DNA from: an uncultured delta proteobacterium
Lineage (GTDB): Bacteria; Myxococcota_A; Polyangia; Polyangiales; Polyangiaceae
Assembly (NCBI GenBank): GCA_963839305.1
Contig: CAWIUL010000012.1
Coordinates: 1-32,000 of the forward strand
DNA length: 32,000 nucleotides
Reading direction: 5' to 3'
Part shown: one piece after another, positions 1,435 through 29,633 of the stretch
Layout of the letters: every line of letters starts with the position of its first letter
Position numbering within the stretch: position 1 is the first letter of the stretch
Translations under genes and position numbers: made by a program
The notes under the pieces: generated by a model
Seen by the model: only the letters and a program-made list of their open reading frames with translations
Databases searched by the model: none
What the model was told of the DNA's origin: nothing

Positions 1435-1438
1435 CGCG

Positions 1439-4138: not shown

Positions 4139-4192
4139 TTATCTCCTCTGGAAGCAGATGGAACGCGAACGCCGGCCGTCAGCCGGTCGCGG

Positions 4193-4573
4193 TCACAGGA
4201 GGAAGACGGAGAGTCGAGCGTGCTGACGTTCGAGCGGCGGTCCGGTCCAATCGGGCAGAGCGCCGTTTGCGACGCGAGAAGAAGACGCGGGCGGGATGAT
4301 CGCGAGCGGCGCGCCGAACGTCGGCAGGAGATCGCTCGTGATCGCCGCGGTCACGATCGGCTGGACGGCGTCACCAGGCGACGCGTGCGTGCGGACCTCG
4401 CAGCAGCTCGCGACGTCGAGCGTGGGAGTCGCGTCGTGGCGCTCGCTCGCGCAGCACCCGTCCATCACGGTGTTCGTCGTGCGGCAGACCATGTAGCCGC
4501 GACCGGCGACGAGGACGGCAGCGAAGAGCGCAGCGGCCAAGAGCAGGCCGAAGGCTCGACGCACGGTCGCCAC
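4193..4573 (-). CDS. small exported Cys-rich protein heading the efflux operon (function unknown, possibly metal-related)
   Basis: Intact 126-aa ORF with N-terminal hydrophobic segment FGLLLAAALFAAVLVAG and CC pairs (DGCCASE, SCCEV). It is co-directional with and directly upstream of the OMF-MFP-RND genes. Confidence 0.5.
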   Translation of the reverse strand: MATVRRAFGLLLAAALFAAVLVAGRGYMVCRTTNTVMDGCCASERHDATPTLDVASCCEVRTHASPGDAVQPIVTAAITSDLLPTFGAPLAIIPPASSSRVANGALPDWTGPPLERQHARLSVFLL

Positions 4574-4587
4574 AACCGTTCATGTTC

Positions 4588-7092
4588 CTAATTGTGGTCA
4601 CGCGCCTCCCGTATGGTCAAGTGCGGTCGCATCACCCCGAGGATGCGCTTCATCCACTGCACCAGCAGCAGGTACGTGGCGGTCGCGACCACGAGGAACA
4701 CGAAGTAGCGCGCCGGCAGCGGCACGAACCCGAGCAAGCGCGCGAGCGGCGTGAGCGGCAGGACGCACGCGATCGCCACGACGCGCGCACGGTCGTGAGC
4801 GCGAGCGGGCGGCTCGGGCGGCTCGCGGAACGGGCTTCGCATCGTGCGGATGACGAAGAGCACGAGCGTCTGCGTCGCCAGCGACTCGACGAACCAGCCG
4901 GTGTGGAAGAGCGCCTCGCCGGCGTGGAAGACGTGCAGCAGCACGAAGAAGGTCAGAAAGTCGTAGAGCGAGCTGATCGGCCCGATGACGAGCATGAAGT
5001 TGCGGATCAGTCCGGATGTCCCAGCGCTGCGGCTTGCGGATGAACGTCGGGTCCACGTTGTCGGTCGGGATCGTGACCTGCGCGAGGTCGTAGAGGAAGT
5101 TGTTGAGGAGGATCTGCGTCGGCAGCATCGGCAGGAACGGCAGGAACAGCGACGCGCCCGCCATGCTGAACATGTTGCCGAAGTTCGAGCTGGTGCCCAT
5201 GAGCAGGTACTTCATGACGTTGCCGAACGCCTTGCGCCCCTCGAGGATGCCCGCGTGCAGCACGCCGAGACCGCGTTCGAGCAGGATGATGTCGGCGGCG
5301 TCGCGCGCGACATCGACCGCGCCGGCGACGGAGATGCCGACGTCGGCCGCGTGGAGCGACGGCGCGTCGTTGATGCCGTCGCCGAGGAAGCCGACGACGT
5401 GGCCTGCGGCGCTTCAGCGCGAGGATGATGCGGTTCTTCTGCGCGGGCGAGACGCGCGCGAAGACGCGTCGTCTGCTCGGCGACGTGCGCGAGCGCGGCG
5501 TCGCGTCATCCGCTCGATCTCGTCGCCCAGGACGATCTCGCTCGCGTCGATGCCCGACCTCGCTCGCAGACGTGGCGCGTGACCAGCTCGTTGTCGCCGG
5601 TGAGGATCTTGACCGTGGACGCCGTCGCGCTGCAGCGCGTCGATCGCGTCGCGCGCGTCTTCGCAGCGGCGGATCGGCGAACGCGAGGAAGCCGGCGAGC
5701 ACCAGATCGCGCTCGTCGGCGCGGCGTAGGCGGCCTGCGCCGGCGACGTCGCGCGTACGCGACGGCGAGCACGCGGAAGCCCTCGCGCGCTCAGCGCCTC
5801 GGTACGCGCTGCGGCACTGCGCGCGGCCGTCGCGCGTCGAGCGCGGCGCCGCTCCGACCGCCGTGCGAGCGCAGCGAGGATCGCCTTCCGGCGCGCCTTT
5901 GGTGATCAGGAGCCGCTCGCCCGTCCTGCTCGACGACGACCGAAGGCGGCGGCGCTCGAAGTCGAACGGGATCTCGTCGATCTTCGTGTAGCCGCGGCGT
6001 CGGCCGGCGTCGCGGCGCGCGCGAGGATCGCCGCGTCGAGCGGGCTCGGATGCCGGTCTCGAAGCGGCTGTTGATCGCGGCGAGCCAGGAGCACCGGCGC
6101 TCGGCTGCGCGCCGAGCGCGTCGAGCGCGCGCATCGAGCTCATCTCGCCCGCGGTGAGCGTGCCGGTCTTGTCGCTGCACAGGATGTCGATGCTGCCGAA
6201 GTTCTGGATCGCGGCGAGGTGCTTGACGATGACCTTGCTCGCGCGCCATCGCGACCGCGCCGCTGCGCGAGCGTCACCGTGGTGATCATCGGCAGGAACT
6301 CGGGCGTGAGACCCGACGGCCAGCGCGACCGCGAAGAGCAGCGACTCGAGCGCGTCGCGGTGCATCGCGATGCTCGACGACGAGGATGAACAGCACCAGG
6401 AAGAAGCACCGTCTGCATGATCAGGAAGCCGAACTGCGCGATGCCGCGCTCGAACTCGGTCTCGGGCGGCGCGCGTCGCGAGCCGCGTCGCGATGTCGCC
6501 GAACGCGTCGCGCGCGCCGGTCGCGAGCACCAGCGCGGTCGCCGTGCCGCTCACGACCGAGGTTCCGAGGAAGACCATGTCGCGTCCGTCGCGCTCCGCG
6601 CCGCGCGCTCCTTCTCGACCGGCAGCGACTCGCCGGTGAGCGCCGCCTCCTGCACGTGCAGGTCCTGCGCCTCGAGCAGCCGCGCGTCGGCCGGGAACGA
6701 GATCGCCCGCGGACAGGCGGACGACGTCGCCGGGCACGAGCTCGCGGCGCGGCAGCTCGACGCCACGCGCCGTCGCGCAGCACGGTCGCGGTGGGCGCGA
6801 CCTGCGTCGCGCAGCCGCCGGCGGCACGCTCCGAGCGAAACGTCTGACGAAGTTCGACGATCACGCTGAGCGACGACCATCGACGACGATGATCGCCGCG
6901 TTCGCGAGCTCGCCGACGAACGCCGACACGCCGCTCGCGAGGAGCAGGATCGACGACGAGCGGGTTCGCGAACTGGACAGGAGCTCCATCAGGTGCGAGC
7001 GCTGCTTCTGGGGCGCCGGGTCGTTGGCGCCGCTGTCACGATGCGCGCTTGCGCCTCGCGCGACGAAAGACCTCGCGGCGTTCGTTGCGCGT
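4588..7092 (-). pseudogene. MgtA-like Mg2+-type P-type ATPase, multiply frameshifted
   Basis: ATG at 7092 (MSVDAQRTPRGLSSREAQARIV). Blocks lie in different frames: ILLLASGVSAFVGELANAAIIVV, SIDILCSDKTGTLTAGEM (DKTGT phosphorylation motif, ~6160-6200), GDGINDAPSLHAADVGISVAG, LHAGILEGRKAFGNVMKYLLMGTSSNFGNMFSMAGASLFLPFLPMLPTQILLNNFLYDLAQ. The C-terminus GPISSLYDFLTFFVLLHVFHAGEALFHTGWFVESLATQTLVLFVIRT is also recognisable. Confidence 0.75.
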
Positions 7093-8669: not shown

Positions 8670-8744
<75 letters not shown>

Positions 8745-8773
8745 CCCAGAATCACGCTGAATTCTTTGGGTTT

Positions 8774-10919: not shown

Positions 10920-11348
10920 TCACAGCGGCAGCTTCATCTTCGCCTGCTCAGGAGTGCGCGCGCCTTTCCTGTCGTTGCACGCGTAGCAAGACGTGACGAT
11001 GTTCTCCCACGCGGTCTTGCCGCCCTGCACGCGTGGGACGACGTGATCGTAGTTGAGCTTGTCCATCGCGAACCGCGTCGCGCAGTACTGGCAGACGAAG
11101 TTGTCGCGGGCCATCACGTTGATGCGCGAGAACTTCACGCCCTTCTTGAAGGAAGCAACGGGCTTGATCAGTCGCGCGACAGCAGGCATGCGAATGGTGA
11201 GGTTTCGCTCCTTCGAGGAGTAGATGATTTCGTCGTACTCGCTGAGGATCTCCACCTTGCCGGTGAAGTGCTCGGTGATCACTTCCTGCCAGGAAGCAAC
11301 GCGATGCGGAATCATATAGTGATTGAGAACGAGTGTTGGGAGGCTCAT
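10920..11348 (-). CDS. HNH endonuclease (phage-type), intact
   Basis: 142 aa with VCQYCATRF....LNYDHVVPRVQGGKTAWENIVTSCYACNDRKGARTPEQA (CxxC...H-N-H...CxxC). It is visibly more AT-rich than its surroundings. The ATG lies 20 nt downstream of the last tRNA of the array on the same strand. Confidence 0.85.
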   Translation of the reverse strand: MSLPTLVLNHYMIPHRVASWQEVITEHFTGKVEILSEYDEIIYSSKERNLTIRMPAVARLIKPVASFKKGVKFSRINVMARDNFVCQYCATRFAMDKLNYDHVVPRVQGGKTAWENIVTSCYACNDRKGARTPEQAKMKLPL

Positions 11349-11368
11349 GACACACCAATGGATGTTCG

Positions 11369-11441
11369 TGGGCGCACGTGGAATTGAACCACGATTTCCG
11401 ACTTATCAGGCCGGTGTCTTAGACCTTTCGACGATGCGCCC
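11369..11441 (-). tRNA. tRNA-Ile (anticodon GAT)
   Basis: Acceptor GGGCGCA/TGCGCCC, anticodon arm CCGGC-CTGATAA-GTCGG, T arm CGTGG-TTCAATT-CCACG, A73, no encoded CCA. Confidence 0.85.
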
Positions 11442-11494
11442 GAGTTGACGACTTCAATGCGACAGACGAATGACGGCACGATTGCAGACTGCGG

Positions 11495-11567
11495 TGGGAG
11501 GATCGGGGATCGAACCCGACGGATCTGCCTTGTCGCGGCAGCGTGTTCGCCAGCTCACTCTCCTCCC
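11495..11567 (-). tRNA. tRNA-Val-like (anticodon GAC) with non-canonical anticodon loop
   Basis: Acceptor GGGAGGA/TCCTCCC and T arm TCGGG-TTCGATC-CCCGA are clean. The anticodon arm is CTGCC-GCGACAA-GGCAG, i.e. G32 and C33 in place of the near-universal U33. Confidence 0.6.
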
Positions 11568-11639
11568 GTGGTCGCGAGATTCGAACTCGCAGTCCCTCCG
11601 TCCCGAACGGAGTGCTCTACCAGGTTGAGCCACACCTAG
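11567..11639 (-). tRNA. tRNA-Pro(CGG)-like, probable pseudo-tRNA
   Basis: D arm GCTC-AACCTGGTA-GAGC, anticodon arm CTCCG-TTCGGGA-CGGAG and T arm GCGAG-TTCGAAT-CTCGC are good. The acceptor strands CTAGGTG / GACCACG pair at only 4 of 7 positions, and the 3' strand overlaps the 5' end of the neighbouring tRNA. Confidence 0.35.
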
Positions 11640-11640
11640 A

Positions 11641-11716
11641 TGGTTGGGGCGGAGGGGCTCGAACCCCCATAGCCGGAATCAAAATCCGACGTCCTTGCCG
11701 ATTGAACGACGCCCCA
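11641..11716 (-). tRNA. tRNA-Gln (anticodon TTG)
   Basis: U1-A72 acceptor TGGGGCG/CGCCCCA, anticodon arm TCGGA-TTTTGAT-TCCGG, T loop TTCGAGC, A73 and encoded CCA. Confidence 0.85.
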
Positions 11717-11723
11717 ATGCAAG

Positions 11724-11798
11724 TACCAACGAAGGGATTCGAACCCATACTGTCTTGATCCTGAATCAAGCGCCTCCTACCAATTGGGCTACGTTGGC
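11724..11798 (-). tRNA. tRNA with Leu anticodon CAG but short (5-nt) variable region
   Basis: Acceptor GCCAACG/CGTTGGT, Leu-type D arm TAGCCCAATTGGTAGGAGGC, anticodon arm CTTGA-TTCAGGA-TCAAG, variable ACAGT, T loop TTCGAAT, A73. Confidence 0.65.
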
Positions 11799-11802
11799 GT
11801 AG

Positions 11803-11873
11803 AGCCTCCGCTGAGAGTCGAACTCAGACATCGACGTTCGAAGCGTCGAGCGCGGGTCCACCGCGACGAAGGC
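11803..11873 (-). tRNA. tRNA-Arg (anticodon TCG), compact D arm
   Basis: Acceptor GCCTTCG/CGGAGGC, D arm CGCGG-TGGAC-CCGCG, anticodon arm (T)CGACG-CTTCGAA-CGTCG(A), T arm CTGAG-TTCGACT-CTCAG, U73. Confidence 0.65.
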
Positions 11874-11874
11874 G

Positions 11875-11948
11875 TGGCCTCTCCGCTAGGAGTCGAACCT
11901 AGACAACCACTTTCGTAGAGTGGTGCGTCGATCCACGACGACGAAGAG
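11875..11948 (-). tRNA. tRNA-Arg (anticodon ACG), compact D arm
   Basis: Acceptor CTCTTCG/CGGAGAG, D arm GTCG-TGGAT-CGAC, anticodon arm CCACT-CTACGAA-AGTGG, T arm CTAGG-TTCGACT-CCTAG, G73 and encoded CCA. Confidence 0.65.
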
Positions 11949-11954
11949 ATTCAG

Positions 11955-12025
11955 AGCGGGCGAGGGGAATCGAACCCCCACCTTCGCGTAGGCACCGCGA
12001 TGCTCGACCTTCGAGCTGCACCCGC
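11955..12025 (-). tRNA. tRNA-Gly (anticodon GCC)
   Basis: Acceptor GCGGGTG/CGCCCGC, D arm GCTC-GAAGGTC-GAGC, anticodon arm TCGCG-GTGCCTA-CGCGA, T arm GGGGG-TTCGATT-CCCCT, U73. Confidence 0.8.
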
Positions 12026-12036
12026 AAACACACGAG

Positions 12037-12108
12037 AGCGGACAGTCGGATTTGAACCGACGCTCCAGGGCTTGGAAGGCCCGGCGACCGCCACAGTCTT
12101 TTGCCCGC
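12037..12108 (-). tRNA. tRNA-Gly (anticodon TCC)
   Basis: Acceptor GCGGGCA/TGTCCGC, anticodon loop CTTCCAA (one stem mismatch), T arm GTCGG-TTCAAAT-CCGAC, U73. Confidence 0.75.
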
Positions 12109-12115
12109 ATGGCGT

Positions 12116-12205
12116 TGGCGGAAGCATGCAGAGTCGAACTGCTGCGACGAGTCGCCGCAAGACCGCGTAGCAAACGGTTGCCCGGCCACCCAGGCGAATG
12201 CTTCC
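12116..12205 (-). tRNA. tRNA-Ser (anticodon GCT), class II
   Basis: Acceptor GGAAGCA/TGCTTCC, anticodon arm ACCGT-TTGCTAC-GCGGT, long variable arm TGCGGCG-ACT-CGTCGCA, T loop TTCGACT, G73 and encoded CCA. Confidence 0.8.
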
Positions 12206-12209
12206 TCGG

Positions 12210-12292
12210 CGGAAAGTGGAGGAGTCGAACCCCACCGATTTCTCGGCACCGGTTTTCAAGACCGGCATGCGTCCGCACGCAATTCACTTTCC
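12210..12292 (-). tRNA. tRNA-Ser (anticodon TGA), class II
   Basis: Acceptor GGAAAGT/ACTTTCC, anticodon arm CCGGT-CTTGAAA-ACCGG, variable arm CCGA-GAAA-TCGG, T loop TTCGACT, G73. The D arm is irregular. Confidence 0.7.
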
Positions 12293-12303
12293 ATACGTAA
12301 CGA

Positions 12304-12377
12304 TGGTGGACCGACCGAGACTCGAACTCGGATCTCTGACTTGCGACGCCAGCGTCTTGCCGTTGGACGATCAGCCC
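12304..12377 (-). tRNA. tRNA-Ala (anticodon CGC)
   Basis: Acceptor GGGCTGA/TCGGTCC with the G3:U70 Ala identity pair, anticodon arm CTGGC-GTCGCAA-GTCAG, T arm CCGAG-TTCGAGT-CTCGG, A73 and encoded CCA. Confidence 0.8.
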
Positions 12378-12378
12378 A

Positions 12379-12453
12379 TGGCGCCCTCGACCGGGATCGA
12401 ACCGACCTCAACCCGTAGACAGCGGGTCTGCCTCACCAGATGCATACGAGGGC
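12379..12453 (-). tRNA. tRNA-Asp (anticodon GTC)
   Basis: Acceptor GCCCTCG/CGAGGGC, anticodon arm ACCCG-CTGTCTA-CGGGT, T loop TTCGATC, G73 and encoded CCA. Confidence 0.85.
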
Positions 12454-12472
12454 ACAAACTATTAAGAGCGAG

Positions 12473-12546
12473 TGCGAGCGGAGGGATTCGAACCCTCACA
12501 TTCCTGGACTTAAATCAGGCGCCTCTACCAATTGGGCTACGCTCGC
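12473..12546 (-). tRNA. tRNA with Leu anticodon TAA but short (5-nt) variable region
   Basis: Acceptor GCGAGCG/CGCTCGC, D arm TAGCCCAATTGGTAGAGGC, anticodon arm CCTGA-TTTAAGT-CCAGG (31:39 A-C mismatch), variable AATGT, T arm GAGGG-TTCGAAT-CCCTC, A73. Confidence 0.6.
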
Positions 12547-12562
12547 GTGACGCGCTCCGAAG

Positions 12563-12637
12563 TACGAACGGAGAGATTCGAACTCTCACTGTCCTGGGTT
12601 TGAAGCAGGTGCCTCCTACCAATTGGGCTACGTTCGT
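12563..12637 (-). tRNA. tRNA with Leu anticodon CAA but short (5-nt) variable region
   Basis: Acceptor ACGAACG/CGTTCGT, D arm TAGCCCAATTGGTAGGAGGC, anticodon arm CCTGC-TTCAAAC-CCAGG (31:39 C-C mismatch), variable ACAGT, T arm GAGAG-TTCGAAT-CTCTC, A73. Confidence 0.6.
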
Positions 12638-12638
12638 A

Positions 12639-12726
12639 TGGTGTCATCGGAGGGACTCGAACCCTCATACCCCGTTAGGGGCCTAGGTCCTCAGCCTAGT
12701 GTGTATACCAGTTCCACCACGATGAC
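12639..12726 (-). tRNA. tRNA-Leu (anticodon GAG), canonical class II
   Basis: Acceptor GTCATCG/CGATGAC, anticodon arm CTAGG-CTGAGGA-CCTAG, long variable arm CCCC-TAA-CGGGG, T arm GAGGG-TTCGAGT-CCCTC, A73 and encoded CCA. Confidence 0.85.
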
Positions 12727-12733
12727 GTGTCGG

Positions 12734-12806
12734 TGGGCAGATTCGGGATCGAACCGAATTCTCCGAGGCTTCAACTCGGCGCAATGACCACACTTGCTCT
12801 CTGCCC
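12734..12806 (-). tRNA. tRNA-Phe (anticodon GAA)
   Basis: Acceptor GGGCAGA/TCTGCCC, D arm GCAA-GTGTGGTCA-TTGC, anticodon arm CCGAG-TTGAAGC-CTCGG, T arm TTCGG-TTCGATC-CCGAA, A73. Confidence 0.85.
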
Positions 12807-12813
12807 ATGCCGG

Positions 12814-12887
12814 CGTTCCCACAGGGATTCGAACCCTGGTTTCCTGATCGAGAATCAGGCTTCCTTGGCCATCTAGAAGATGGGAAC
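12814..12887 (-). tRNA. tRNA-Glu (anticodon CTC)
   Basis: Acceptor GTTCCCA/TGGGAAC, D arm TTCT-AGATGGCCAA-GGAA, anticodon arm CCTGA-TTCTCGA-TCAGG, T arm CAGGG-TTCGAAT-CCCTG, G73. Confidence 0.85.
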
Positions 12888-12894
12888 AGTCGAG

Positions 12895-12967
12895 CGCGCC
12901 CTATGGGGTTCGAACCCATCTTGCCGGATTGAAAGTCCAGTATCCTGACCGCCTAGAAGAAGGGCGC
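12895..12967 (-). tRNA. tRNA-Glu (anticodon TTC)
   Basis: Acceptor GCGCCCT/AGGGCGC, anticodon arm CTGGA-CTTTCAA-TCCGG, T arm ATGGG-TTCGAAC-CCCAT, G73. Confidence 0.85.
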
Positions 12968-12973
12968 AGCGGG

Positions 12974-13044
12974 AGCTGGCGAGCGGAATCGAACCGCTCC
13001 CGCCGCTTTACGAAAACGGTGCTCCGCCTTGGAGCTACACCAGC
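12974..13044 (-). tRNA. tRNA-Thr (anticodon CGT)
   Basis: Acceptor GCTGGTG/CGCCAGC, D arm GCTC-CAAGGCG-GAGC, anticodon arm CCGTT-TTCGTAA-AGCGG, T arm AGCGG-TTCGATT-CCGCT, U73. Confidence 0.8.
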
Positions 13045-13048
13045 ATTG

Positions 13049-13120
13049 CTCACCGAGAGGGAATCGAACCCCCGATAGGGCGCTTAACAGACGCCTGCCT
13101 TACCACTTGGCTATCGGTGA
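13049..13120 (-). tRNA. tRNA-Asn (anticodon GTT)
   Basis: U1-A72 acceptor TCACCGA/TCGGTGA, anticodon arm GGCGT-CTGTTAA-GCGCC, T arm GGGGG-TTCGATT-CCCTC, G73. Confidence 0.85.
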
Positions 13121-13187
13121 ATACAAAACAGGAGAGGCATGCCCGCATCGACGCGCGCCACGTCCTGGCAAATTTTCAAAGAGCAAA

Positions 13188-13203
13188 GTGCTCGCGAGAG
13201 CAC
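13188..13203 (-). terminator. intrinsic-terminator-like hairpin inside the tRNA array
   Basis: On the minus strand, GTGCTC-TCGC-GAGCAC is followed by TTTGCTCTTTGAAAATTT. It sits in the 84-nt spacer directly after tRNA-Gln(CTG). Confidence 0.45.
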
Positions 13204-13204
13204 C

Positions 13205-13279
13205 TGGTTCGGGCTGAAGGACTCGAACCTTCATTCTCGGTTTCAGAAACCGGCGTCCTAGCCGTTGGACGAAGCCCGA
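13205..13279 (-). tRNA. tRNA-Gln (anticodon CTG)
   Basis: U1-A72 acceptor TCGGGCT/AGCCCGA, anticodon loop TTCTGAA (one stem mismatch), T arm GAAGG-TTCGAGT-CCTTC, A73 and encoded CCA. Confidence 0.8.
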
Positions 13280-13288
13280 AAGCGGCAG

Positions 13289-13359
13289 TGGGTCCGGAGG
13301 GAATCGGACCCTCGCCGAGTGCTTAAGAGGCACCTGCTCGACCTTCGAGCTACGGACCC
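13289..13359 (-). tRNA. tRNA-Lys (anticodon CTT), atypical T loop
   Basis: Acceptor GGGTCCG/CGGACCC, D arm GCTC-GAAGGTC-GAGC (identical to the Gly-GCC gene), anticodon arm GGTGC-CTCTTAA-GCACT, T arm GAGGG-TCCGATT-CCCTC (C at position 55), A73. Confidence 0.7.
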
Positions 13360-13369
13360 ATCGATGAAG

Positions 13370-13442
13370 TGGGACGTTCCGGGATCGAACCGGACTCCTG
13401 CCGCTTAAAAGACGGCTGCATCACCATTGTTGCTAACGTCCC
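13370..13442 (-). tRNA. tRNA-Lys (anticodon TTT)
   Basis: Acceptor GGGACGT/ACGTCCC, anticodon arm GCCGT-CTTTTAA-GCGGC, T arm TCCGG-TTCGATC-CCGGA, A73. Confidence 0.85.
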
Positions 13443-13505
13443 TCTTTCTTCCTCGCCCGTCTCTCACGGGCATGAGTTTGCGTTTCATGATTGCGTTCCT
13501 CGTCT

Positions 13506-13591
13506 TGGTGGGATGCGGTGGAGTCGAACCACTTGCCCGAAGGCCACCGGGTTACAGCCGGCTTGAGCTTCCACTGCTCAGAACGCACCCC
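13506..13591 (-). tRNA. tRNA-Tyr (anticodon GTA), class II
   Basis: Acceptor GGGGTGC/GCATCCC, anticodon arm GCCGG-CTGTAAC-CCGGT, long variable arm, T loop TTCGACT, A73 and encoded CCA. Confidence 0.8.
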
Positions 13592-13708
13592 GCTTCGCGT
13601 GGATGGTTTAAGCGTCGATATCGCTCTTGATGGTTTTGGTTGGTGCTCATCGAGTACACGTCTCCGTGCTCCCAATCGGGAGCGCGAAACTTCGAGCCCA
13701 GAAACGAC

Positions 13709-13741
13709 GAAGGCCGCTCTCGGTTTCCCGAGGCGGCCTTC
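13709..13741 (-). terminator. long GC hairpin with GAAA tetraloop (terminator-like)
   Basis: On the minus strand, GAAGGCCGCCTCGG-GAAA-CCGAG(A)GCGGCCTTC is followed by GTCGTTTCT. It lies between tRNA-His and the array. Confidence 0.4.
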
Positions 13742-13951
13742 CTCTGCGCGTGTTGCGCGTGATGGAAGAACCGCCTCTACGTACCGACCTCCTGATTGCG
13801 TGCGGCCGACTTCGGTTCGATGGAGGCGGGATAGCTGGGCGTAAGCGAGTCACGATCGCCGGACAAAATGCACGACGGCCCAGCAAGCTCTTTTTGCGAG
13901 CTCCGGGCTAGAGACGTGAATTTCGGCGTGGGACACATCATGGGAAAATCT

Positions 13952-14028
13952 TGGGGTGAGTGACGGGATTCGAACCCGTGAATACGTGAGCCACAGACAC
14001 GCGCCTTGACCACTTGGCTACACCCACC
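13952..14028 (-). tRNA. tRNA-His (anticodon GTG) with encoded G-1
   Basis: G-1 pairs with C73. Acceptor GTGGGTG/CACTCAC, D arm GCC-AAGTGGTCAA-GGC, anticodon loop CTGTGGC, T arm ACGGG-TTCGAAT-CCCGT, encoded CCA. Confidence 0.85.
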
Positions 14029-14542: not shown

Positions 14543-14854
14543 ATGGGACAAAAGAAGGAACTTAAGAAACGGCGCGCTCGGCGGACGTTCACGGCGGCGC
14601 AGAAGGCCGACGCGGTGCGGCTCGTGAAGAGCGGCAAGTCGGTCGCGCAGGTGGCGCGGGAGCTCGATCTGACGGCAACGTCGCTGCACGTGTGGGTACG
14701 GCGCGCGGAGGCGGATGCCGGCGAGCGTAGCGACGCGCTGACGACCCAGGAGCGCGAGGAGCTGTCGCGGCTGCGACGAGAGGTCAAGCACCTGCAGCGG
14801 GAACGCGACATCCTAAAAGCGGCGGCCACCTTCTTCGCGAAGGAGAGCGCGTGA
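14543..14854 (+). CDS. IS3-family transposase OrfA (HTH)
   Basis: MGQKKELKKRRARRTFTAAQKADAVRLVKSGKSVAQVARELDLTATSLHVWVRR... followed by a leucine-zipper-like ELSRLRREVKHLQRERDILKAAATFFAKE. Confidence 0.85.
   Translation: MGQKKELKKRRARRTFTAAQKADAVRLVKSGKSVAQVARELDLTATSLHVWVRRAEADAGERSDALTTQEREELSRLRREVKHLQRERDILKAAATFFAKESA
14815..14819 (+). promoter_or_regulatory. candidate -1 programmed frameshift site A-AAA-G for the OrfAB fusion
   Basis: orfA codons cta aaa gcg. orfB is in the -1 frame, and that frame is open from this point (PKSGGHLLREGERVKY...). Confidence 0.5.
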
Positions 14855-15723
14855 AGTACGCGTTCATCGATTCGCAGAAGGTGGCCTGGCCGGTCATGGC
14901 CATGTGCGAGGCGCTCGGCGTCTCCAAGAGCGGCTACTACGACTGGCTCGCCGAGCCCATCACCGAGCGTGAGCGTCGCGACGTCGCGCTCGCCTCCAAG
15001 GTCCGCGCCATCTTCGGAGACCATCGCGGCCGCTATGGGAGCCCTCGCGTCGCTGAGGAGCTGCGTGCCGACGGCGAGGTCGTCAACGAAAAGCGCGTCG
15101 CGCGCATCATGCGGGAAACCGGCCTCGTTGCGAGCCGCAGCAAGCGCTTCGTCGCCACGACCGACTCGGCCCACGCCGAGCCGATCGCGCCCAACCTGCT
15201 CGAGCGGAACTTCACCACAGACGCACGCAATCGCGTCTGGGTGACGGACGTGACGGCGATTTGGACGATGGCCGGCTGGTTGTATCTTGCAGCCATTCTC
15301 GACCTGTACTCGCGGCGAGTCGTGGGCTGGGCGACCAGCGATACCAACGACACCGCGCTCGCGCTCGACGCGCTCAGAGCAGCGTTGCGCGAGCGTCGCC
15401 CCGCGCCGGGGCTCGTCCACCACTCCGACCGCGGCAGCCCCTACGCGAGCGCCGCCTACCGTGCCGCGCTCTCGACCGCCGGCATCGTCGCGAGCATGAG
15501 CCGCAAAGGCGATTGCTGGGACAATGCCGTCGCCGAAAGCTTCAACGCTACCCTCAAGACCGAGGCCATCGACCACGTGCCCGCCGACCACGACGCCGGG
15601 ACGCGCCTCGTCGCCGCGTACATCGATGGCTACTACAACGTCCGGCGTAGGCACTCTTTCCTTGGTTACGAGACCCCGATCACGTTTGAATGGAAGCGGA
15701 CCATCACCGAGATGGCCGCGTGA
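14851..15723 (+). CDS. IS3-family transposase OrfB (DDE/RNase-H-like integrase core)
   Basis: 290 aa: ...GRYGSPRVAEELRADGEVVNEKRVARIMRETGLVA...RVWVTDVTAIWTMAGWLYLAAILDLYSRRVVGWA...VHHSDRGSPYAS..YRAAL...GIVASMSRKGDCWDNAVAESFNATLKTE. Confidence 0.9.
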   Translation: MKYAFIDSQKVAWPVMAMCEALGVSKSGYYDWLAEPITERERRDVALASKVRAIFGDHRGRYGSPRVAEELRADGEVVNEKRVARIMRETGLVASRSKRFVATTDSAHAEPIAPNLLERNFTTDARNRVWVTDVTAIWTMAGWLYLAAILDLYSRRVVGWATSDTNDTALALDALRAALRERRPAPGLVHHSDRGSPYASAAYRAALSTAGIVASMSRKGDCWDNAVAESFNATLKTEAIDHVPADHDAGTRLVAAYIDGYYNVRRRHSFLGYETPITFEWKRTITEMAA

Positions 15724-15933: not shown

Positions 15934-16007
15934 TGGACTCGGAGGCAGGATTCGAACCTGCGCCCAGCAGGTCCGAGCCTGCCGTTCTACCGCTGAACTA
16001 CTCCGAG
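15934..16007 (-). tRNA. tRNA-Pro (anticodon CGG)
   Basis: C1-G72 acceptor CTCGGAG/CTCCGAG, D arm GTTC-AGCGGTA-GAAC, anticodon arm GCAGG-CTCGGAC-CTGCT, T arm GCAGG-TTCGAAT-CCTGC, encoded CCA. Confidence 0.85.
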
Positions 16008-19288: not shown

Positions 19289-19873
19289 TCAGCCACCGTC
19301 GCCTTCGTCTCGTCGGGCAAACCCCACGTGCCGGCGTGAGTACGCGGGAAGACGCGCAGACACGAGGTCGATGGCCTCCTGCGCATTCGCCGCGCGATAC
19401 ACGCAGTCGTCCGGGATGTCCGGATAGCGCTCCCGATGATCGAGTCGTTGCCCTGCGAGCGTCTCGCTCCAACCCGGCGCCACGATCGCGACGATCAGGC
19501 GCCGGTACATCCACGCGAAGGCGATCTCCGAGAGCGTTCCGGCGCCGCCTCCCACGGCGACCATGGCGTCGCAATTGGCCACGAGAGAGTTCCGCGCGTG
19601 ATCGAGTCCGCTCGCGATGACGATGTCCGCCCACGCGTTGGCTTCTGCGGGATTCGGGTGTGGCAGGATCGCGAGCGTGTCCCCTTCGTGGTAGCGCGCG
19701 GACTCGTGCGCACCGCGTAATGCGGCCTCCATCACGCCACCAAGGCCGCCGGAGACGACGCGCATCCCCGCATCGACGGCGAGGCGTCCGAGGGTGCGTG
19801 CGTGTTCGTACGCGGGGTTGCCGTCGCTGACGCCAGCGTCACCCACCACAGCGAGCAGCGGTCTCCGCTTCAT
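19289..19873 (-). CDS. LOG / TIGR00725-like Rossmann-fold protein (lysine-decarboxylase-like family)
   Basis: VVGDAG....A..LGRLAVDAGMRVVSGGLGGVMEAALRGA...LAILP... and the LOG-type motif VAVGGGAGTLSEI. The ATG at 19873 overlaps the giant gene's TGA as ATGA, with GGAGG 7 nt upstream. An alternative ATG lies at 19894. Confidence 0.75.
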   Translation of the reverse strand: MKRRPLLAVVGDAGVSDGNPAYEHARTLGRLAVDAGMRVVSGGLGGVMEAALRGAHESARYHEGDTLAILPHPNPAEANAWADIVIASGLDHARNSLVANCDAMVAVGGGAGTLSEIAFAWMYRRLIVAIVAPGWSETLAGQRLDHRERYPDIPDDCVYRAANAQEAIDLVSARLPAYSRRHVGFARRDEGDGG

Positions 19874-22800
19874 TGGTCTACCTCCGGCATCCATTCGGCG
19901 TCATCGCAAGGAACTGCGCGTTGCATCGCCAGCATTCTCGGGACGTCGGGTACATCGTGCAGCGCGAAGCCGAGCCGCACTCCCATTCGGGACAGTGCGG
20001 CAGCGACACGCGCGTCCACGGCCCCGTCGGGATACGCGGCGGAGCACCCACTGCCTCCCATCCTGACCGTCCACTCGCGAGCCTGAGTGACGCATTCCGC
20101 GAACTCCCCATCATTGTAGAGCGTCCATCGAACGTGCTCCGTGCCATGCATGGCGATGCTCAGGTCTCCGGTCGCGACAAACTCTCGGAGCGTCCTTTCG
20201 TGCAGGTAAAGCGATCGCCGGAGCGCATCACCGTTGGCCGCCACGCGGTGGGCGGCCTCGAGCTGGTCGCGGACGGACGTTTGGAGGAAGGCCTCGCGCC
20301 AGTTTCGCATCTTCATCCGCTCCGAAGATTCTTCATCTGCATAGATCGCGTCGAGTGGAGCGAGGCTCGGCCACCCATCATCGAGTGCGGCGCGCACGAA
20401 GACCGTGCTCGGGATACCGAGCTTTTGCAGGATGGGCCACGCGTGTTCGGCGAAATCTCGGTAGCCATCATCGACCGTCACCAGGAGGGCGTTCTCCGGA
20501 AGAGCAACCTCGCCAGCCGCGGCGCGTTCGACATCGCCCAAATGAACGGGCACGTAACGCCGAACGAGCCGGCGAAGCTGCGCCTCGAAGGCGGCAGTGG
20601 ACACGACCATTCCCCGGTCGCGATAGACGCGCACAAGGCGGTTCGCGTGCGGGTCGGGGAGCACGCGGTGATAGCTCAGCGTCGTGAGCTTCAGAGCATT
20701 CGCCGCTCGTCGTCGCGGGTACGACGGCTTCGAAGTGAGCGATCGGATCACGCTTTCACGGGCGCTCCGTGCGGCGGCGTCTCTTGGGTCCGTCGGCTCG
20801 TGCAGATAGTTGGACTCGCGGATCCAGACCGGCCGTTTCGCCATCTCGATGATCGGCAGCATGAAGGCCCAGTCCGTCGCGCGCGCCCACCAAGACGCAC
20901 CATCTTGCAGATCGCTCGTCTCGATCCGGTCGAAGAGCGTTTTTCGGAACGTGCGCAGGTGTTGCCAGACCGCGCCGCCGCGCTTCGCACGTGGCGCTTC
21001 GAAGTCCACCGTGTAATTCGACTGCTTGTCCGTCCGGACCATCGACCCAACCGTCACGTCAGCGCCGCGCGCGTGCTCCTCCGCGACGCGCTCGAGCGCC
21101 TTCGTGCTCCCGAGCGCGTCGTCTAGGTCGACGAGGACAATCGCGGCTTCAGGTCTCGCGACGAGGTTCCGCACCGCGTGGTGCGTGTTCGCGAGCAGCC
21201 CTACGCGGCGCCTCCGCCGAACGAACGTCACGCGATCCCCAAAACGGACGCACTCACGCTTGAGGGTGTCATCCGAGCCATCGTCGGACGCGTCGTCGAT
21301 GACGATCGCCCCCCACGCCTGGAACGTTTGCGCGGCGAGGGAGTCCAGACAGCGTCGAATGCGCCCGGCGCCCACGTTGCGACCGCAGACGACGAGCACC
21401 ATGGACTCGTCGCGACCGCGCTGCAAAGATCGCGGCGAGCCGAGAACTTGCGCGGCGCGGGGACGGCCGACGTCGCGACCGTCGCGTTCGATCTCGTCGA
21501 TGAGCAGAAGAAGATCGTCGGCCTTCGACTTTCGCGCGTTGTCGGGGTGTGCGAACCAATGGGCGCGCGACCCGAGTCGTAGAGAGGTCCCCTTTCCAAA
21601 CGCCACGGCTCGGTCCAAGGAACGGTGCCACGGCAGCTGAAAGCGTCCATCACGCACCTCGTTCGCCAAAGGCCGGAGCCCTTGAGCGCGCGCCTTGTGG
21701 ATCCATCCGCAAATTGCCTCGACGCGGAAGGGACCCCGCTCGTCGCCATCGCGAACACGCGGAGCGTCGCCTGGCACTGGCAGCGCGAGCGTGAGCGCGT
21801 CCGGTCGTGCATCGAACGCGTCGATGGCTTCGCGAACGAAGTCGGCGACGGGATCGGGCCGCCCGACAAGCGTGTCGACATCCGCGTGAAGGACGAAATC
21901 TCCGGTGCACGCGTCGAGCGCCGAAAGGAACGCGACGAGCGCTTGGCCATTGGCTGCGTGTGTGGTGCCGCAGTCCGTGCCGAACCAGCGCTCCGCGACC
22001 TTGGCGATTTCGTGTTCGGCGGTAGGGGCCTCGACGACGCGGTCAACGATGCCGCGCCGTCGGAGGCGATCGAGCGCGGCGCGCGCACCGGGAAGATCGG
22101 CATGCGAGTGCTCACGCACGAACCCGGTCAGCGACGGGTCGAGCGCGACGATCACTTCGTCGAAGGCGCGTGGACGGGCCAATTGGTGGACGAGGTGCTC
22201 AACCTGAGCCTCGAGGGTCTCGGCGTCCATCGGACACGCTTTGATCACGAGTGATGTGCGCGCCTCGATCCGCGCGAGGGGTCGGAGCTCGAAAAGACGG
22301 AACTCGGGCACGCGCTCGAACCGATGGAGGTCCGTGCCGTCGACAATCGATTCTAGTGCGACGGCGAAACCTGCCGTAGCGAAGGCGCGTCGATACGCGT
22401 CGAGCGGGCGATGGACCTCGGTGCGAAGGTCTCCTGATGCCTCGCTGCGCTTCGTGTAGGACGAGATTGAAAGATATGCGTTCTCCTCTGGGTCGACGCG
22501 CGTCTGCGATGTAGTGCGCTCGACCCGACAACTTGTGGGGTCGCACACGGCGACGAGAACGCGACCGGTTTCTCGAACGACGTGCCGCATGCGCGCGAGG
22601 GCATCGCGCATCCCGCCGTCCTCGAGGGTGCAAAGCACGAGAGAGCATGTGATTGCGTCGAATGGCGCGCGTTCGAGGACGCGCCCGATGCAGCGTTCGT
22701 CGACGAAGACCCCGGGAGCTGCGGCCTCCCATCGCGCTCCCAAGCGCTCGTCCGGGTCGAACGCGAGAAGGCCGCGGACGCGCCGCTGGCCTCGCGGTTT

Positions 22801-25731: not shown

Positions 25732-26086
25732 GAGACCCCAGATGCGAGAGGGCGCCTCAGGAAATCGATTCGATGGTGGTTCCCGAGGGTCCACGCAGAT
25801 CGGGAAGGATGTTCCGAACGACCAAGGTGCTGAAATTCACGGGACCGGAGCACTCCGGACTTTGGCGCATCGCCATCCCATGACCATTTGAACGGGCATC
25901 CCCACGCGATCGGCGTGAGCCCTCTTCTTCTAGCGCTGGCGAGGTGAAGCGCAAGGACCACGAGCTCGGCGCCGCAGCCGATGCAGTCGTTCACCGAGCT
26001 CGACGACTCTCTTTGGCGCGCGCGGGTTCGTCTTGCCGATCGCGAGCCGTACGTGATCGCTTGACAGCGGCCGCGCGACGCTCGCG

Positions 26087-26323: not shown

Positions 26324-26523
26324 CGGCCGGCGGCCTCCTGTTCTTGACGTGCGGTTCGGAGCAGCACCATCACGCACCACGCCGAGATCGTGACGCCGGT
26401 GTGGTCTGCGGCGGCCTTTATTAGGCGGTGCTGCTCCTCGGTTAAGCGCACGCGGAGGAAAACCGAGCGTCGTTCGTCCGGGGGTTTGCGCCATGGTTTT
26501 CGCTGTTTGCGCGCGCTTGCCAT
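26320..26523 (-). CDS. ribbon-helix-helix (CopG/MobC-like) DNA-binding protein
   Basis: MASARKQRKPWRKPPDERRSVFLRVRLTEEQHRLIKAAADHTGVTISAWCVMVLLRTARQEQ has a strand-helix-helix pattern. It is divergent from DUF2130-A. Confidence 0.6.
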   Translation of the reverse strand: MASARKQRKPWRKPPDERRSVFLRVRLTEEQHRLIKAAADHTGVTISAWCVMVLLRTARQEQEAAGR

Positions 26524-26573
26524 GGCCGACTGTACCACACCAGTCCACGAACCGTTCACGATGGGTTGCGCAG

Positions 26574-26602
26574 TGTGCACGTTTGGGGTACAAACGTACG
26601 TG
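26574..26602. promoter_or_regulatory. imperfect palindrome (candidate operator) in the RHH / DUF2130-A divergent intergenic region
   Basis: GCACGTTTG-gggta-CAAACGTACGTGC. The core 7-bp arms ACGTTTG/CAAACGT lie at 26578-26596. Confidence 0.35.
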
Positions 26603-26642
26603 CGGCCCATCGGAAGGAATCAAGGTAGTCACATGAATCAGA

Positions 26643-29626: not shown

Positions 29627-29633
29627 CCATCCA

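Follow-up and report, generated by a model that had tools for sequence, protein, structure and literature searches.

The locus raises the question of whether three tRNA genes with leucine anticodons but no long variable arm are leucine tRNAs, and what such genes are doing where they lie. They are found on the minus strand of the window, the 32,000-nucleotide stretch of DNA analyzed here, at 11724..11798 (anticodon CAG), 12473..12546 (UAA) and 12563..12637 (CAA). An earlier, sequence-only reading proposed that they are paralogous Leu-type tRNAs with a class I body, probably leucine acceptors, and offered mischarging, a decoy role or loss of function as alternatives. Judged from sequence comparison, the three genes are probably functional leucine tRNAs of the type I family, carried in a horizontally mobile, phage-like array. 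The rough probability assigned to this reading is 0.78.

All three genes are recovered by independent callers. ARAGORN reports minus-strand tRNA-Leu(cag) at 11723-11798, tRNA-Leu(taa) at 12472-12546 and tRNA-Leu(caa) at 12562-12637. The Rfam model RF00005 scores the CAG, UAA and CAA genes at 56.8, 59.8 and 53.6 bits (gathering score 29), at coordinates 11724-11798, 12473-12546 and 12563-12637, identical to those of the sequence-only reading. In the cloverleaf parse, the genes are 75, 74 and 75 nt long, all acceptor stems pair at 7/7 positions, and each gene has the T loop TTCGAAT, the discriminator A73 and no encoded CCA. U33 is present and the anticodon loop is in the standard 7-nt register. 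The variable regions are 5 nt long and form no stem-loop (ACAGU in the CAG gene, AAUGU in the UAA gene, ACAGU in the CAA gene), so that none of the three carries the long arm (>10 nt, with a stem-loop) of a canonical class II tRNA.

The D arm is TAGCCCAATTGGTAGGAGGC in the CAG and CAA genes and TAGCCCAATTGGTAGAGGC in the UAA gene, and the motif TAGCCCAATTGGTAG(G)AGGC is common to all three. Each has U8, a 3-bp stem (G10-C25, C11-G24, C12-G23) followed by an unpaired C13.A22, and a D loop of the form AAUUGGYAG(N)A that includes A14, A15, G18 and G19. The genes are 77-81% identical to one another and no more than 73% identical to any other tRNA in the window, and a repeat search of the window independently groups them (families D2 and D8). 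The proposal that they are paralogs, being one another's nearest relatives in the window, is borne out, as are the lengths, anticodons, common D arm, 5-nt variable region and A73 on which it was based. The pairing at position 31:39 is A-U in the CAG gene, A.C in the UAA gene and C.C in the CAA gene, which agrees with the reported mismatch in two of the three. The T stem of the CAG gene has a U50.U64 mismatch. The minimum-free-energy fold is a cloverleaf for the UAA gene (z = -2.6) and nearly a cloverleaf for the CAG gene; the D and anticodon parts of the CAA fold are not cloverleaf. Single-sequence folding is indecisive, and a comparative model is therefore relied on instead. A chance cloverleaf is rejected on the Rfam scores and the family-model matches given below.

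A class II tRNA-Leu(GAG) lies next door on the same strand at 12639..12726, as described previously. It is 88 nt long including an encoded CCA, is found by both Rfam (56 bits) and ARAGORN, and has a 16-nt variable arm (gCCCCtaacGGGGtat) and the D arm TGGTGGAACTGGTATACAC. It is the only class II tRNA-Leu of the array. By their anticodons, this gene and the three short genes together are predicted to decode all leucine codons but CUA. The short genes have much in common with canonical class II tRNA-Leu, including the 3-bp D stem, the 13:22 mismatch and a loop of the form AAYUGGYAGA. A15-U48, A73 and an anticodon-independent identity are common to the short form and to class II tRNA-Leu as represented by E. 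coli and by the GAG gene of the window. The two forms differ in the variable region, which is 5 nt in type I and 11-17 nt in class II, and in the bases of the D stem, which are GCC/GGC in type I and GGU/ACC-like in class II. A viral class II tRNA-Leu(tag), on contig L210, carries the type I D-arm motif and so links both forms of tRNA-Leu. Animal mitochondrial tRNA-Leu also has A73 and no long variable arm. This is a likeness of architecture for which no sequence relationship is claimed, and the D and T loops of mitochondrial tRNAs are degenerate, unlike those of the window genes.

The D-arm motif TAGCCCAATTGGYAG alone was scanned in genome contigs and viral contigs, with tRNAs called by ARAGORN. 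The scan returns 174 tRNAs, 172 of which have a leucine anticodon (taa, tag, caa, cag, gag or aag). These 172 are 74-79 nt long, except for one class II gene of 82 nt. Among 170 tRNA-Leu with the motif, 154 have a variable region of 5 nt and 165 have A as the discriminator. The shorter D-loop string AATTGGYAG is not specific to leucine, as some Asn, Thr, Lys and Trp tRNAs contain it too; tRNA-Leu is diagnosed only by the full D-arm motif.

Known recognition elements of tRNA-Leu are U8-A14, A15-U48, G18G19, U54/U55/C56/A58 and A73. Among 137 distinct family members from outside the window, T8, A14, A15, G18, G19, U48, U54, U55, C56, A58 and A73 are invariant, and every one of these positions is intact in the three window genes. 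The cloverleaf of the family is supported by covariation: pairing holds in 98.9% of cells, and changes affect both partners in 17 of 20 pairs. At 0.82, the covariation score exceeds the 0.19 of shuffled alignments (0 of 500 reach 0.82) and the 0.15 or less obtained when the partners are slid. A covariance model (R1) built from the 137 members, with no window sequences, scores the UAA gene at 84.4 bits (E 3.6e-26), the CAG gene at 78.9 bits (E 2.5e-24) and the CAA gene at 77.7 bits (E 6.1e-24). The best of the 23 other tRNAs detected in the window reaches 48.8 bits, and the class II tRNA-Leu(GAG) 42.4 bits. The anticodon register from the R1 alignment is that of ARAGORN. A different anticodon register or a different isotype is rejected on the association of motif and anticodon together with the R1 scores. 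These results establish family membership, structural conservation and the almost exclusive association with leucine anticodons. Sequence comparison indicates that type I is a conserved lineage of tRNA-Leu in which the Leu-type D arm and tertiary core are kept with a 5-nt variable region.

The class I body is not without precedent. The sequence-only reading treated the architecture as unprecedented, but it is already documented and biochemically characterized in Streptomyces coelicolor (Fan, Huang, Ji, Wang, NAR 2019, PMC6614811), and Behra et al. 2019 (PMC6582537) remark on a tRNA-Leu with a short loop in a tRNA cluster of mycobacteria. The single LeuRS of S. coelicolor leucylates the type I tRNA-Leu(CAA) of that species, the one family member for which charging by the cognate enzyme has been shown; attempts to delete the gene did not succeed, and it is apparently essential (PMC6614811). 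Charging requires the 5-nt length of the variable region, is sensitive to U8-A14 and depends on a specific LeuRS domain; A73 is not an identity element (PMC6614811). The tRNA is charged by human mitochondrial LeuRS and not by E. coli LeuRS, and the S. coelicolor enzyme does not charge human mt-tRNA-Leu(UUR) (PMC6614811). The properties of E. coli LeuRS had been invoked in favor of leucylation of the window genes; since that enzyme did not charge type I, the argument points the wrong way.

The S. coelicolor tRNA resembles the window genes in its leucine anticodon, 5-nt loop, U8-A14, G18G19, A73 and length (74-76 nt). Its variable loop is ACAG-N, compared with ACAGU in two of the window genes. 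Streptomyces genomic copies have the D arm TAGCCCAATTGGCAG(C/T)AGGC, with an extra D-loop nucleotide as in the CAG and CAA genes, and have the A31.C39 mismatch of the UAA gene. In S. coelicolor there is one chromosomal housekeeping gene for UUG, served by an actinobacterial LeuRS known to accept it. In the window, by comparison, three isoacceptors (CAG, UAA and CAA) lie in a mobile array of what is apparently a diderm host.

With these comparisons in hand, it is very improbable that the three tRNAs are charged by another synthetase and cause recoding or mistranslation of leucine codons. The missing variable arm, a hallmark of bacterial tRNA-Leu, and the failure of E. coli LeuRS on type I would fit such a reading, as would the aberrant migration of some array tRNAs (Phe and Ile) in Anabaena, for which misacylation was raised as one possibility (PMC8421152). 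Against it, the body is found with all six leucine anticodons and essentially no others. A constant body across the anticodons of both leucine codon boxes is expected of a synthetase that does not read the anticodon. There is no variation in the Leu-type D loop, A15-U48 or A73, the S. coelicolor member is leucylated, and elements of other systems, such as G3-U70 or G-1, are not evident. The earlier proposal of Leu-type tRNAs that have a class I body and probably accept leucine is thus upheld by the link of 172 of 174 motif-bearing tRNAs to leucine and by the invariant recognition elements.

The three genes belong to a dense tRNA array at 11368..14027 on the minus strand, where ARAGORN finds 25 genes on one strand in 2.66 kb. 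The array covers 16 amino acids (Met, Trp, Cys and Tyr are absent), and its spacers are mostly 1-20 nt. This is the density of mobile long tRNA arrays (about 20 or more genes on one strand), which also carry HNH or homing endonuclease genes and signs of mobility. Here, an HNH endonuclease gene lies directly downstream on the same strand at 10920..11348 (PHROG HNH families, best E 2.8e-25; Pfam HNH_5 and HNH). A DNA homolog of this gene, 70% identical, is found near a related tRNA-Leu on a 393-kb viral contig (L144), and HNH genes likewise flank the arrays of phage Sixama and pCC7120delta. The window CAG gene is 93.5% identical to the tRNA-Leu(tag) of the L144 contig. An IS3-family insertion sequence at 14543..15723 on the plus strand, with an orfA (HTH_Tnp_1) and an orfB (rve integrase core), separates the tRNA-His gene (14027) from a last, 26th tRNA-like gene at 15934-16007. 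Several array tRNAs resemble tRNAs of Gordonia, Mycobacterium, Streptomyces and Pseudomonas phages. The array context is established by these findings.

The source of the array is less sharply defined. The G+C content is 0.585-0.59 in the array and 0.62-0.72 in the flanks, a difference to be read with the constrained composition of tRNA genes in mind. No integrase or phage structural genes are found in the window, and a search for an att-like copy of the nearby tRNA-Arg(TCG) 3' end, made in order to define an island, is negative. Searches for near-identical relatives return none for the array and a 1974-aa gene in the phage collection, or for 8-20 kb in plasmids, which implies that no deposited phage or plasmid is the source element. 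The exact orfB protein of the IS3 element is present on other contigs, where the matches are other IS copies only; exact-protein look-ups of the HNH and DUF2130 proteins give no match. The source contig measures 1.18 Mb. The flanks carry OEP, HlyD and AcrB fragments, from which the host appears to be a diderm and not an actinobacterium. Apart from the source contig's own protein, the nearest homologs of an mgtA fragment are only 39-45% identical and belong to metagenome-assembled genomes of Binataceae, Polyangiaceae and Acidobacteriota, and the host is accordingly described as a high-G+C diderm of a poorly sampled lineage.

Similar arrays are known from several systems. Actinobacteriophage and mycobacterial clusters (C1 phages Cali/Bxz1, Gordonia phage Sixama) contain several class I tRNA-Leu in a dense tRNA cluster with HNH genes, at 82-89% identity over about 64 nt. 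They are found in phage genomes or mycobacterial hosts, whereas the flanks in the window look like a diderm chromosome or megaplasmid. The L-array type of the Mycobacterium tRNA array units likewise has more than 20 tRNAs on one strand (Morgado and Vicente 2018, PMC5966550). The trn operon on the delta plasmid of Anabaena/Nostoc PCC 7120 resembles the window array in its more than 20 one-strand tRNAs, short spacers, HNH gene and mobility, and differs from it in gene order and sequences. It contains four short tRNA-Leu, one of which has a D arm identical to that in the window (TAGCCCAATTGGCAGAGGC).

The Anabaena array stays silent until translational stress induces it (Santamaria-Gomez et al. 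2021, PMC8421152). In that array, 23 of 26 tRNAs are aminoacylated in vivo, and three of the 26 genes are pseudogenes (PMC8421152). With four short tRNA-Leu present, these counts mean that one or more of the four are charged in a host outside the actinobacteria. The result is for aminoacylation only, and the data do not specify the attached amino acid.

The array in the window shows wear. It is interrupted by the IS element, its tRNA-Pro is 69 nt long with an acceptor stem paired at 6/7 positions, and one tRNA-like gene has an anticodon loop of 6 nt. A promoter scan limited to the sigma-70 consensus finds no sigma-70-like site, and terminator-like matches are at background level. The neighboring RND efflux and mgtA genes are split into short ORFs. 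This raises the alternative that the short tRNA-Leu genes are decaying or silent type I copies in a stranded, unselected array, unexpressed or non-functional in the host, a state to which the stress-dependent expression and pseudogenes of the homologous Anabaena array also lend some plausibility. The C31.C39 mismatch of the CAA gene and the U50.U64 mismatch of the CAG gene would fit decay as well.

The state of the three genes themselves makes this alternative rather improbable. Their invariant positions and acceptor stems are intact, and with R1 scores of 78-84 bits they rank as genuine members of the family typically do. The viral relative on L144 has the U.U mismatch of the CAG gene too, which indicates that the mismatch was retained and is not recent damage. 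A 31:39 mismatch does not in itself point to decay: A31.C39 is a conserved feature of the CAA isoacceptors on Corynebacterium and Streptomyces chromosomes (16 of 76 solitary genomic members). The C.C pair, however, is rare (1 of 170 family members). The split ORFs could stem from errors in long-read assembly and need not be pseudogenes, and the promoter scan would detect sigma-70 sites only. The decoy, mischarged and non-functional alternatives keep a small probability for this host, but nothing in the analysis favors them.

Solitary chromosomal copies of short tRNA-Leu genes occur in Nocardia, Mycobacterium, Gordonia, Rhodococcus, Corynebacterium, Arthrobacter, Streptomyces, Amycolatopsis and Acidimicrobiia, and their flanks are syntenic among Nocardia and relatives. 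Array copies occur in Cyanobacteria, Myxococcaceae, Planctomycetota, Cellvibrionaceae, Saprospiraceae and Xanthobacteraceae, and phages Sixama and Cali have three short tRNA-Leu genes each. In a control sample of 119 viral loci, chosen by an isotype-neutral T-arm pattern, short genes (15) and long genes (14) each account for about half of the tRNA-Leu. Outside the Actinomycetota, short tRNA-Leu is strongly enriched in phage and array contexts.

This enrichment would be expected if the class I body, in some cases with a loosened anticodon stem, were selected because toxin-resistant replacements of leucine tRNAs escape host toxins or defense nucleases that read the long variable arm or the anticodon stem-loop of the host's class II tRNA-Leu. 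Phage tRNAs are proposed to evade anticodon nucleases through changes in the anticodon loop (PMC10264068). The 31:39 mismatch widens the anticodon loop in two of the three window genes, and several other array tRNAs have unusual loops, such as a tRNA-Val with C33. Even so, selection for escape is an unlikely explanation of the body. A class II tRNA-Leu(GAG) is retained in the same array, and no cognate toxin is identified within the window. The chromosomal housekeeping copies of the Actinomycetota share the body, which makes a defense rationale unnecessary for the architecture. We know of no toxin that targets tRNA-Leu through its variable arm, and the preference of MenT3 is for tRNA-Ser.

A broader form of the idea concerns the non-Actinomycetota hosts as a group. 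In these hosts, of which the apparent diderm host of the window is one, the class I body might be an adaptation and not an inherited trait, hiding the tRNA from toxins or nucleases that recognize the long arm or the anticodon stem of class II tRNA-Leu. Alternatively, if the host LeuRS, like that of E. coli, cannot charge short tRNA-Leu, the three tRNAs might be uncharged decoys or might need a factor supplied by the mobile element. We regard this as doubtful. If evasion or a decoy role were true, short-armed tRNA-Leu would be a functional marker of anti-defense tRNA arrays.

The reading preferred here is that the three genes serve as leucine tRNAs; expression, charging in this host and a selective reason for carriage are what we infer. 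The array would be transcribed into a polycistronic precursor, from which RNase P and 3' nucleases would release the tRNAs, and CCA would be added by the CCA-adding enzyme. LeuRS would then charge leucine by reading the acceptor end and the core formed by the D, T and variable regions while ignoring the anticodon. Because E. coli LeuRS fails on the Streptomyces type I tRNA, the competence of the host LeuRS is not to be assumed. The charged short tRNA-Leu would act as ordinary elongators, and they may add to the host's own tRNA-Leu, or stand in for it, when that pool runs short or is attacked.

The three genes fit a tRNA type that is already documented and do not represent a new tRNA class. A literature search for a systematic account of class I tRNA-Leu in phages or arrays returns only the Streptomyces study and one passing remark, on a mycobacterial cluster, and the literature searched describes type I for these two settings only. 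By sequence, the type appears to be widespread on actinobacterial chromosomes and common in phage and mobile tRNA clusters. In dozens of actinobacterial genera the same arm-less body is encoded once, on the chromosome, and in a small unbiased viral sample it makes up about half of tRNA-Leu. Arrays with arm-less tRNA-Leu are carried by cyanobacteria, myxobacteria, planctomycetes and proteobacteria, a pattern that may merit a systematic census. The failure of E. coli LeuRS, the need for a specific LeuRS domain and the wide host range of the arrays together lead to two questions that can be tested: which LeuRS enzymes can use type I tRNA-Leu as a substrate, and whether the short body benefits the mobile elements that carry it.

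The minus strand of the window (65.6% G+C) carries a dense run of 25 tRNA genes called by ARAGORN at 11368-14027, and 20 ARAGORN-called genes in the window exceed the gathering score of the general Rfam tRNA model. Within this run are tRNA-Leu(CAG) at 11724-11798 (-), tRNA-Leu(UAA) at 12473-12546 (-) and tRNA-Leu(CAA) at 12563-12637 (-), all called by ARAGORN and scored by the Rfam model at 56.8, 59.8 and 53.6 bits, respectively. The Rfam calls match exactly the coordinates in the sequence-only reading. In the cloverleaf parse, the three genes have a complete acceptor stem (7/7), a common D arm, TAGCCCAATTGGTAG(G)AGGC, and a 5-nt variable region (ACAGU in the CAG and CAA genes, AAUGU in the UAA gene). 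All three have the T loop UUCGAAU and discriminator A73, and none encodes CCA. The anticodon stem has five pairs in the CAG gene and four in each of the other two; position 31:39 is A-U in the CAG gene, A.C in the UAA gene and C.C in the CAA gene. The parse confirms the anticodons, Leu-type D arm, variable regions and A73 noticed before, along with the 31:39 mismatch in two of the three genes. The T stem of the CAG gene also has a U50.U64 mismatch, which had gone unmentioned. The genes are 77-81% identical to one another and at most 73% identical to any other tRNA in the window, as expected of the paralogs they had been taken to be, and a repeat search of the window recovers them independently. 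The class II tRNA-Leu(GAG) described next to them is present at 12639-12726 (-), with 88 nt and a 16-nt variable arm. Since gene calls, parse, identities and repeats agree, all factual statements of the sequence-only reading are correct.

The D-arm scan used a 15-nt motif, TAGCCCAATTGGYAG, alone, which carries no anticodon information, against one genome per prokaryotic species and against IMG/VR viral contigs (at least 120 loci each). Among the matches listed, ARAGORN identifies at least 174 motif-bearing tRNAs, and 172 of 174 have a leucine anticodon (UAA, UAG, CAA, CAG, GAG or AAG). All but one of these 172, an 82-nt class II gene, are 74-79 nt long. In a set of 170 motif-bearing tRNA-Leu, 154 have a 5-nt variable region and 165 have an A discriminator. 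Among the matches listed, the family pairs one conserved body with each of the six leucine anticodons and with practically no other anticodon. Such a pattern is the signature of a tRNA whose synthetase ignores the anticodon, like LeuRS, which does not read it. The distribution of anticodons argues strongly against a non-leucine identity for the three genes.

The family alignment contains 137 distinct members, none of them from the window. Invariant positions include U8, A14, A15, G18, G19, U48, U54, U55, C56, A58 and A73, and exactly those positions are listed as recognition or tertiary-core elements of bacterial tRNA-Leu in the introduction of Fan et al. 2019 (PMC6614811). In the family cloverleaf, 98.9% of cells are paired and both partners change in 17 of 20 pairs. 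Covariation scores 0.82, versus 0.19 in shuffles (none of 500 reaches 0.82) and at most 0.15 with slid 3' partners. The type I family is under strong structural selection and is tied to leucine anticodons. R1, a covariance model built from these 137 members, was run over the whole window without filters as the closest substitute here for isotype-specific scoring. It gives 78.9 bits to the CAG gene, 84.4 to the UAA gene and 77.7 to the CAA gene, versus 48.8 bits for the best other tRNA; the class II tRNA-Leu(GAG) scores 42.4 bits. A confident assignment to another amino acid with a different register of the anticodon loop had been named as grounds for rejection. The registers in the R1 alignment and in ARAGORN agree for all three genes. 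By R1 score, the three firmly belong to the type I tRNA-Leu family, as intact members.

The interpretation first attached to these genes holds in part. The anticodon distribution and R1 support their reading as leucine tRNAs; the idea of an architecture without precedent does not hold, since type I tRNA-Leu is known (PMC6614811). Streptomyces coelicolor has a type I tRNA-Leu(CAA) with the variable loop A44 C45 A46 G47 C48, plus four type II isoacceptors, and its sole LeuRS, ScoLeuRS, leucylates both types. The type I gene could not be deleted. This S. coelicolor type I tRNA is charged by human mitochondrial LeuRS and not by E. coli LeuRS, and the ability to charge type I is conferred by the leucine-specific domain of LeuRS (all PMC6614811). 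The earlier argument for leucylation from E. coli LeuRS is undercut by the failure of that enzyme on the S. coelicolor tRNA, and A73, offered as a basis of recognition, is not an identity element in that system (PMC6614811). Streptomyces genomic copies share the D arm and extra D-loop nucleotide of the window CAG and CAA genes and the A31.C39 mismatch of the UAA gene.

Most copies found in the genome scan are solitary. Among the matches listed, 73 of 120 loci contain a single tRNA per 8 kb, mostly a lone short tRNA-Leu, and solitary members number at least 76 when loci with up to two tRNAs are counted. They occur, among the matches listed, on chromosomes of Nocardia, Mycobacterium, Mycolicibacterium, Gordonia, Rhodococcus, Dietzia, Corynebacterium, Arthrobacter, Rothia, Streptomyces, Pseudonocardia, Acidimicrobiia and others. 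UAA is the prevailing anticodon among them; Streptomyces and Corynebacterium have CAA, and Amycolatopsis and Kutzneria have UAG. The ORFs flanking the Nocardia copies are syntenic, and the synteny reaches Rhodococcus and one metagenome-assembled Mycobacterium, the pattern of a stable housekeeping gene. These chromosomal copies agree with the statement in a study of MenT3 that only three tRNA-Leu species of M. tuberculosis have long variable loops (PMC11541572). Selection of the short body as an escape from toxins recognising the variable arm or anticodon stem is plausible; no toxin of that sort is known for tRNA-Leu, and the chromosomal copies show that the body needs no such rationale.

Outside the Actinomycetota, the family is found in multi-tRNA arrays among the matches listed: in Cylindrospermum (26 tRNAs in the locus), Moorena, a metagenome-assembled Myxococcaceae genome (21 tRNAs), Cellvibrionaceae (19 tRNAs), Saprospiraceae, Xanthobacteraceae, Planctomycetota and Acidobacteria. 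Viral contigs contain at least 78 motif-bearing tRNA-Leu, often accompanied by short tRNA-Leu with variant D arms. Among the matches listed, motif-selected loci contain 236 short versus 21 long tRNA-Leu, a motif-biased sample. Because of this bias, a control sample of 119 viral loci was chosen by an isotype-neutral T-arm pattern. In these loci, ARAGORN identifies 15 tRNA-Leu of 74-78 nt versus 14 of 81-94 nt, leaving out eight tandem copies of one odd 84-nt gene; short tRNA-Leu are thus commonplace in phage tRNA clusters. The excluded genes, at 1507-2398 of IMGVR_UViG_3300012012_000956, are near-identical and tRNA-Leu-like with a period of ~125 nt, an unusual tandem amplification with an anticodon switch (six UAA, two CAA). 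One control locus, on a 234-kb viral contig, is laid out like the window, with several short isoacceptors and one long tRNA-Leu(GAG). Mixed forms are also present. An 82-nt viral tRNA-Leu(tag) (locus L210) is class II, with a 13-nt variable arm, yet has the type I D-arm motif TAGCCCAATTGGCAG, and viral loci such as L187 contain short tRNA-Leu with class II-type D arms (TGGCGGAATTGGCATACGC). These forms look like intermediates and suggest more than one loss or gain of the long arm.

Among the matches listed, the closest relative of any of the three lies on a 393-kb viral contig: a tRNA-Leu(UAG) with 93.5% identity to the window CAG gene and, like it, a U.U mismatch in the T stem. A nearby HNH homolog has 70% DNA identity to the window HNH gene. 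That gene, at 10920-11348 (-), lies directly downstream of the array on the same strand. HNH genes are likewise found beside the arrays of Gordonia phage Sixama and of pCC7120delta from Nostoc/Anabaena PCC 7120. When the array was compared with deposited phages by distant BLAST, all three short genes matched annotated tRNA-Leu of Sixama and cluster C1 mycobacteriophages, which have three tRNA-Leu each, of 74-76 nt, and no convincing long one. The window members sit in a phage-like mobile array. [quoted passage not shown] 2019, PMC6582537). The trn operon of pCC7120delta (4000-4536) contains four tRNA-Leu, all of class I length (caa 78, tag 75, gag 78 and taa 75 nt), one with a D arm identical to that of the window genes. 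In this Anabaena array, 23 of 26 tRNAs are aminoacylated in vivo and three were undetected (Santamaria-Gomez et al. 2021, PMC8421152). With four short tRNA-Leu in the array, at least one would be charged in a cyanobacterium, with leucine or another amino acid. In the GAG copy the T arm is degenerate, and this copy may be among the three pseudogenes reported there. Type I tRNA-Leu and mobile tRNA arrays are both already known, and the window adds members; the literature search found no systematic account of the broad distribution of type I tRNA-Leu.

Several other tRNAs of the window are non-canonical. tRNA-Val(GAC) at 11493-11567 (-) has the anticodon loop GCGACAA, with C33 in place of U33, which is universal in tRNA anticodon loops. 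It overlaps by 2 nt with tRNA-Pro(CGG) at 11566-11634 (-), a gene of only 69 nt whose D arm is shortened and whose acceptor stem is 6/7. In tRNA-Lys(CUU) at 13288-13359 (-), position 55 of the T loop (UCCGAUU) is a C. These changes fit either nuclease evasion or decay. Between tRNA-Gln(CUG) and tRNA-Asn is an 84-nt spacer, unusually long for the array, with an 8-bp hairpin and T-rich tail at 13186-13205 (-) that could be an internal terminator or processing signal; terminator-like matches occur in the region at background frequency. An IS3-family element at 14543-15723 lies beyond tRNA-His and cuts off the last tRNA-like gene, at 15934-16007 (-). This gene encodes CCA and scores 61.1 bits with the Rfam model; ARAGORN lists it as tRNA-???, giving a 2-nt 'anticodon' (cg). 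Its anticodon loop is apparently 6 nt (CUCGGA, flanked by GCAGG/CCUGC), and it may derive from a Pro, Arg or Ser tRNA by a one-base deletion. A canonical-looking tRNA-Arg(UCG) at 8670-8746 (+) is separate from the array, 2.2 kb from its HNH end, and a 72-nt divergent copy is within it at 11802-11873 (-). The plus-strand gene may belong to the host and be a potential site of integration; no repeat of its 3' end was found within the window.

The flanks do not have a phage look, and searches of the window revealed neither an integrase nor an att repeat nor a promoter-like site. At 105-6966 (-), genes for RND efflux (AcrB/CusA-like, HlyD/CusB-like and OEP/TolC-like) and an mgtA P-type ATPase are split into several short ORFs, which are either pseudogenes or frameshift errors of long-read assembly. 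The mgtA fragment is found at 100% identity on one public contig only, where it is likewise called as a 523-aa piece; the homologs that come next reach 39-45% identity. The OEP and HlyD fragments suggest that the host is a diderm. Genes for Hsp20 and a CcbP-like protein are also present. At 19289-25794 (-), a SLOG cluster-4 (LDcluster4) gene is immediately downstream of a 1974-aa ORF, whose glycosyltransferase family 2 and polysaccharide deacetylase domains are confined to the C-terminal quarter; nothing in Pfam matches the N-terminal ~1400 residues. Two DUF2130 paralogs, at 26390-27871 (+) and 29723-31765 (+), enclose a divergently oriented WYL/WCX-domain regulator at 28559-29680 (-), a layout reminiscent of defence or regulatory cassettes. 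Within the second paralog, at 30125-30522, is a 179-nt direct repeat (73% identical). Some features point to the three short genes being relics: the rare C31.C39 mismatch of the CAA gene, the IS insertion in the array, the degenerate 69-nt tRNA-Pro and the tRNA with a 6-nt anticodon loop, and the split flanking ORFs. Against this, the invariant family positions are intact in all three genes and their R1 scores are high.

As intact type I tRNA-Leu, the three would be transcribed with the array as a precursor and processed, would receive CCA enzymatically, and would be charged by LeuRS through the acceptor end and the D/T/variable core. Acceptance of the type I form by the LeuRS of this host is the main uncertainty, given the E. 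coli LeuRS result. Acting as ordinary elongators alongside the class II tRNA-Leu(GAG), they would cover five of the six leucine codons. They would probably serve to buffer a tRNA pool, either that of the host or that of an infecting element. This is the current view of such arrays, with a link to translational stress in Anabaena (PMC8421152); arrays have also been linked to anti-defence in mycobacteria and phages (PMC10264068, PMC12803027). Of wider value is the finding that type I tRNA-Leu appears to be ubiquitous in phages and arrays across phyla, in contrast to the narrow range of compatible LeuRS enzymes reported to date.
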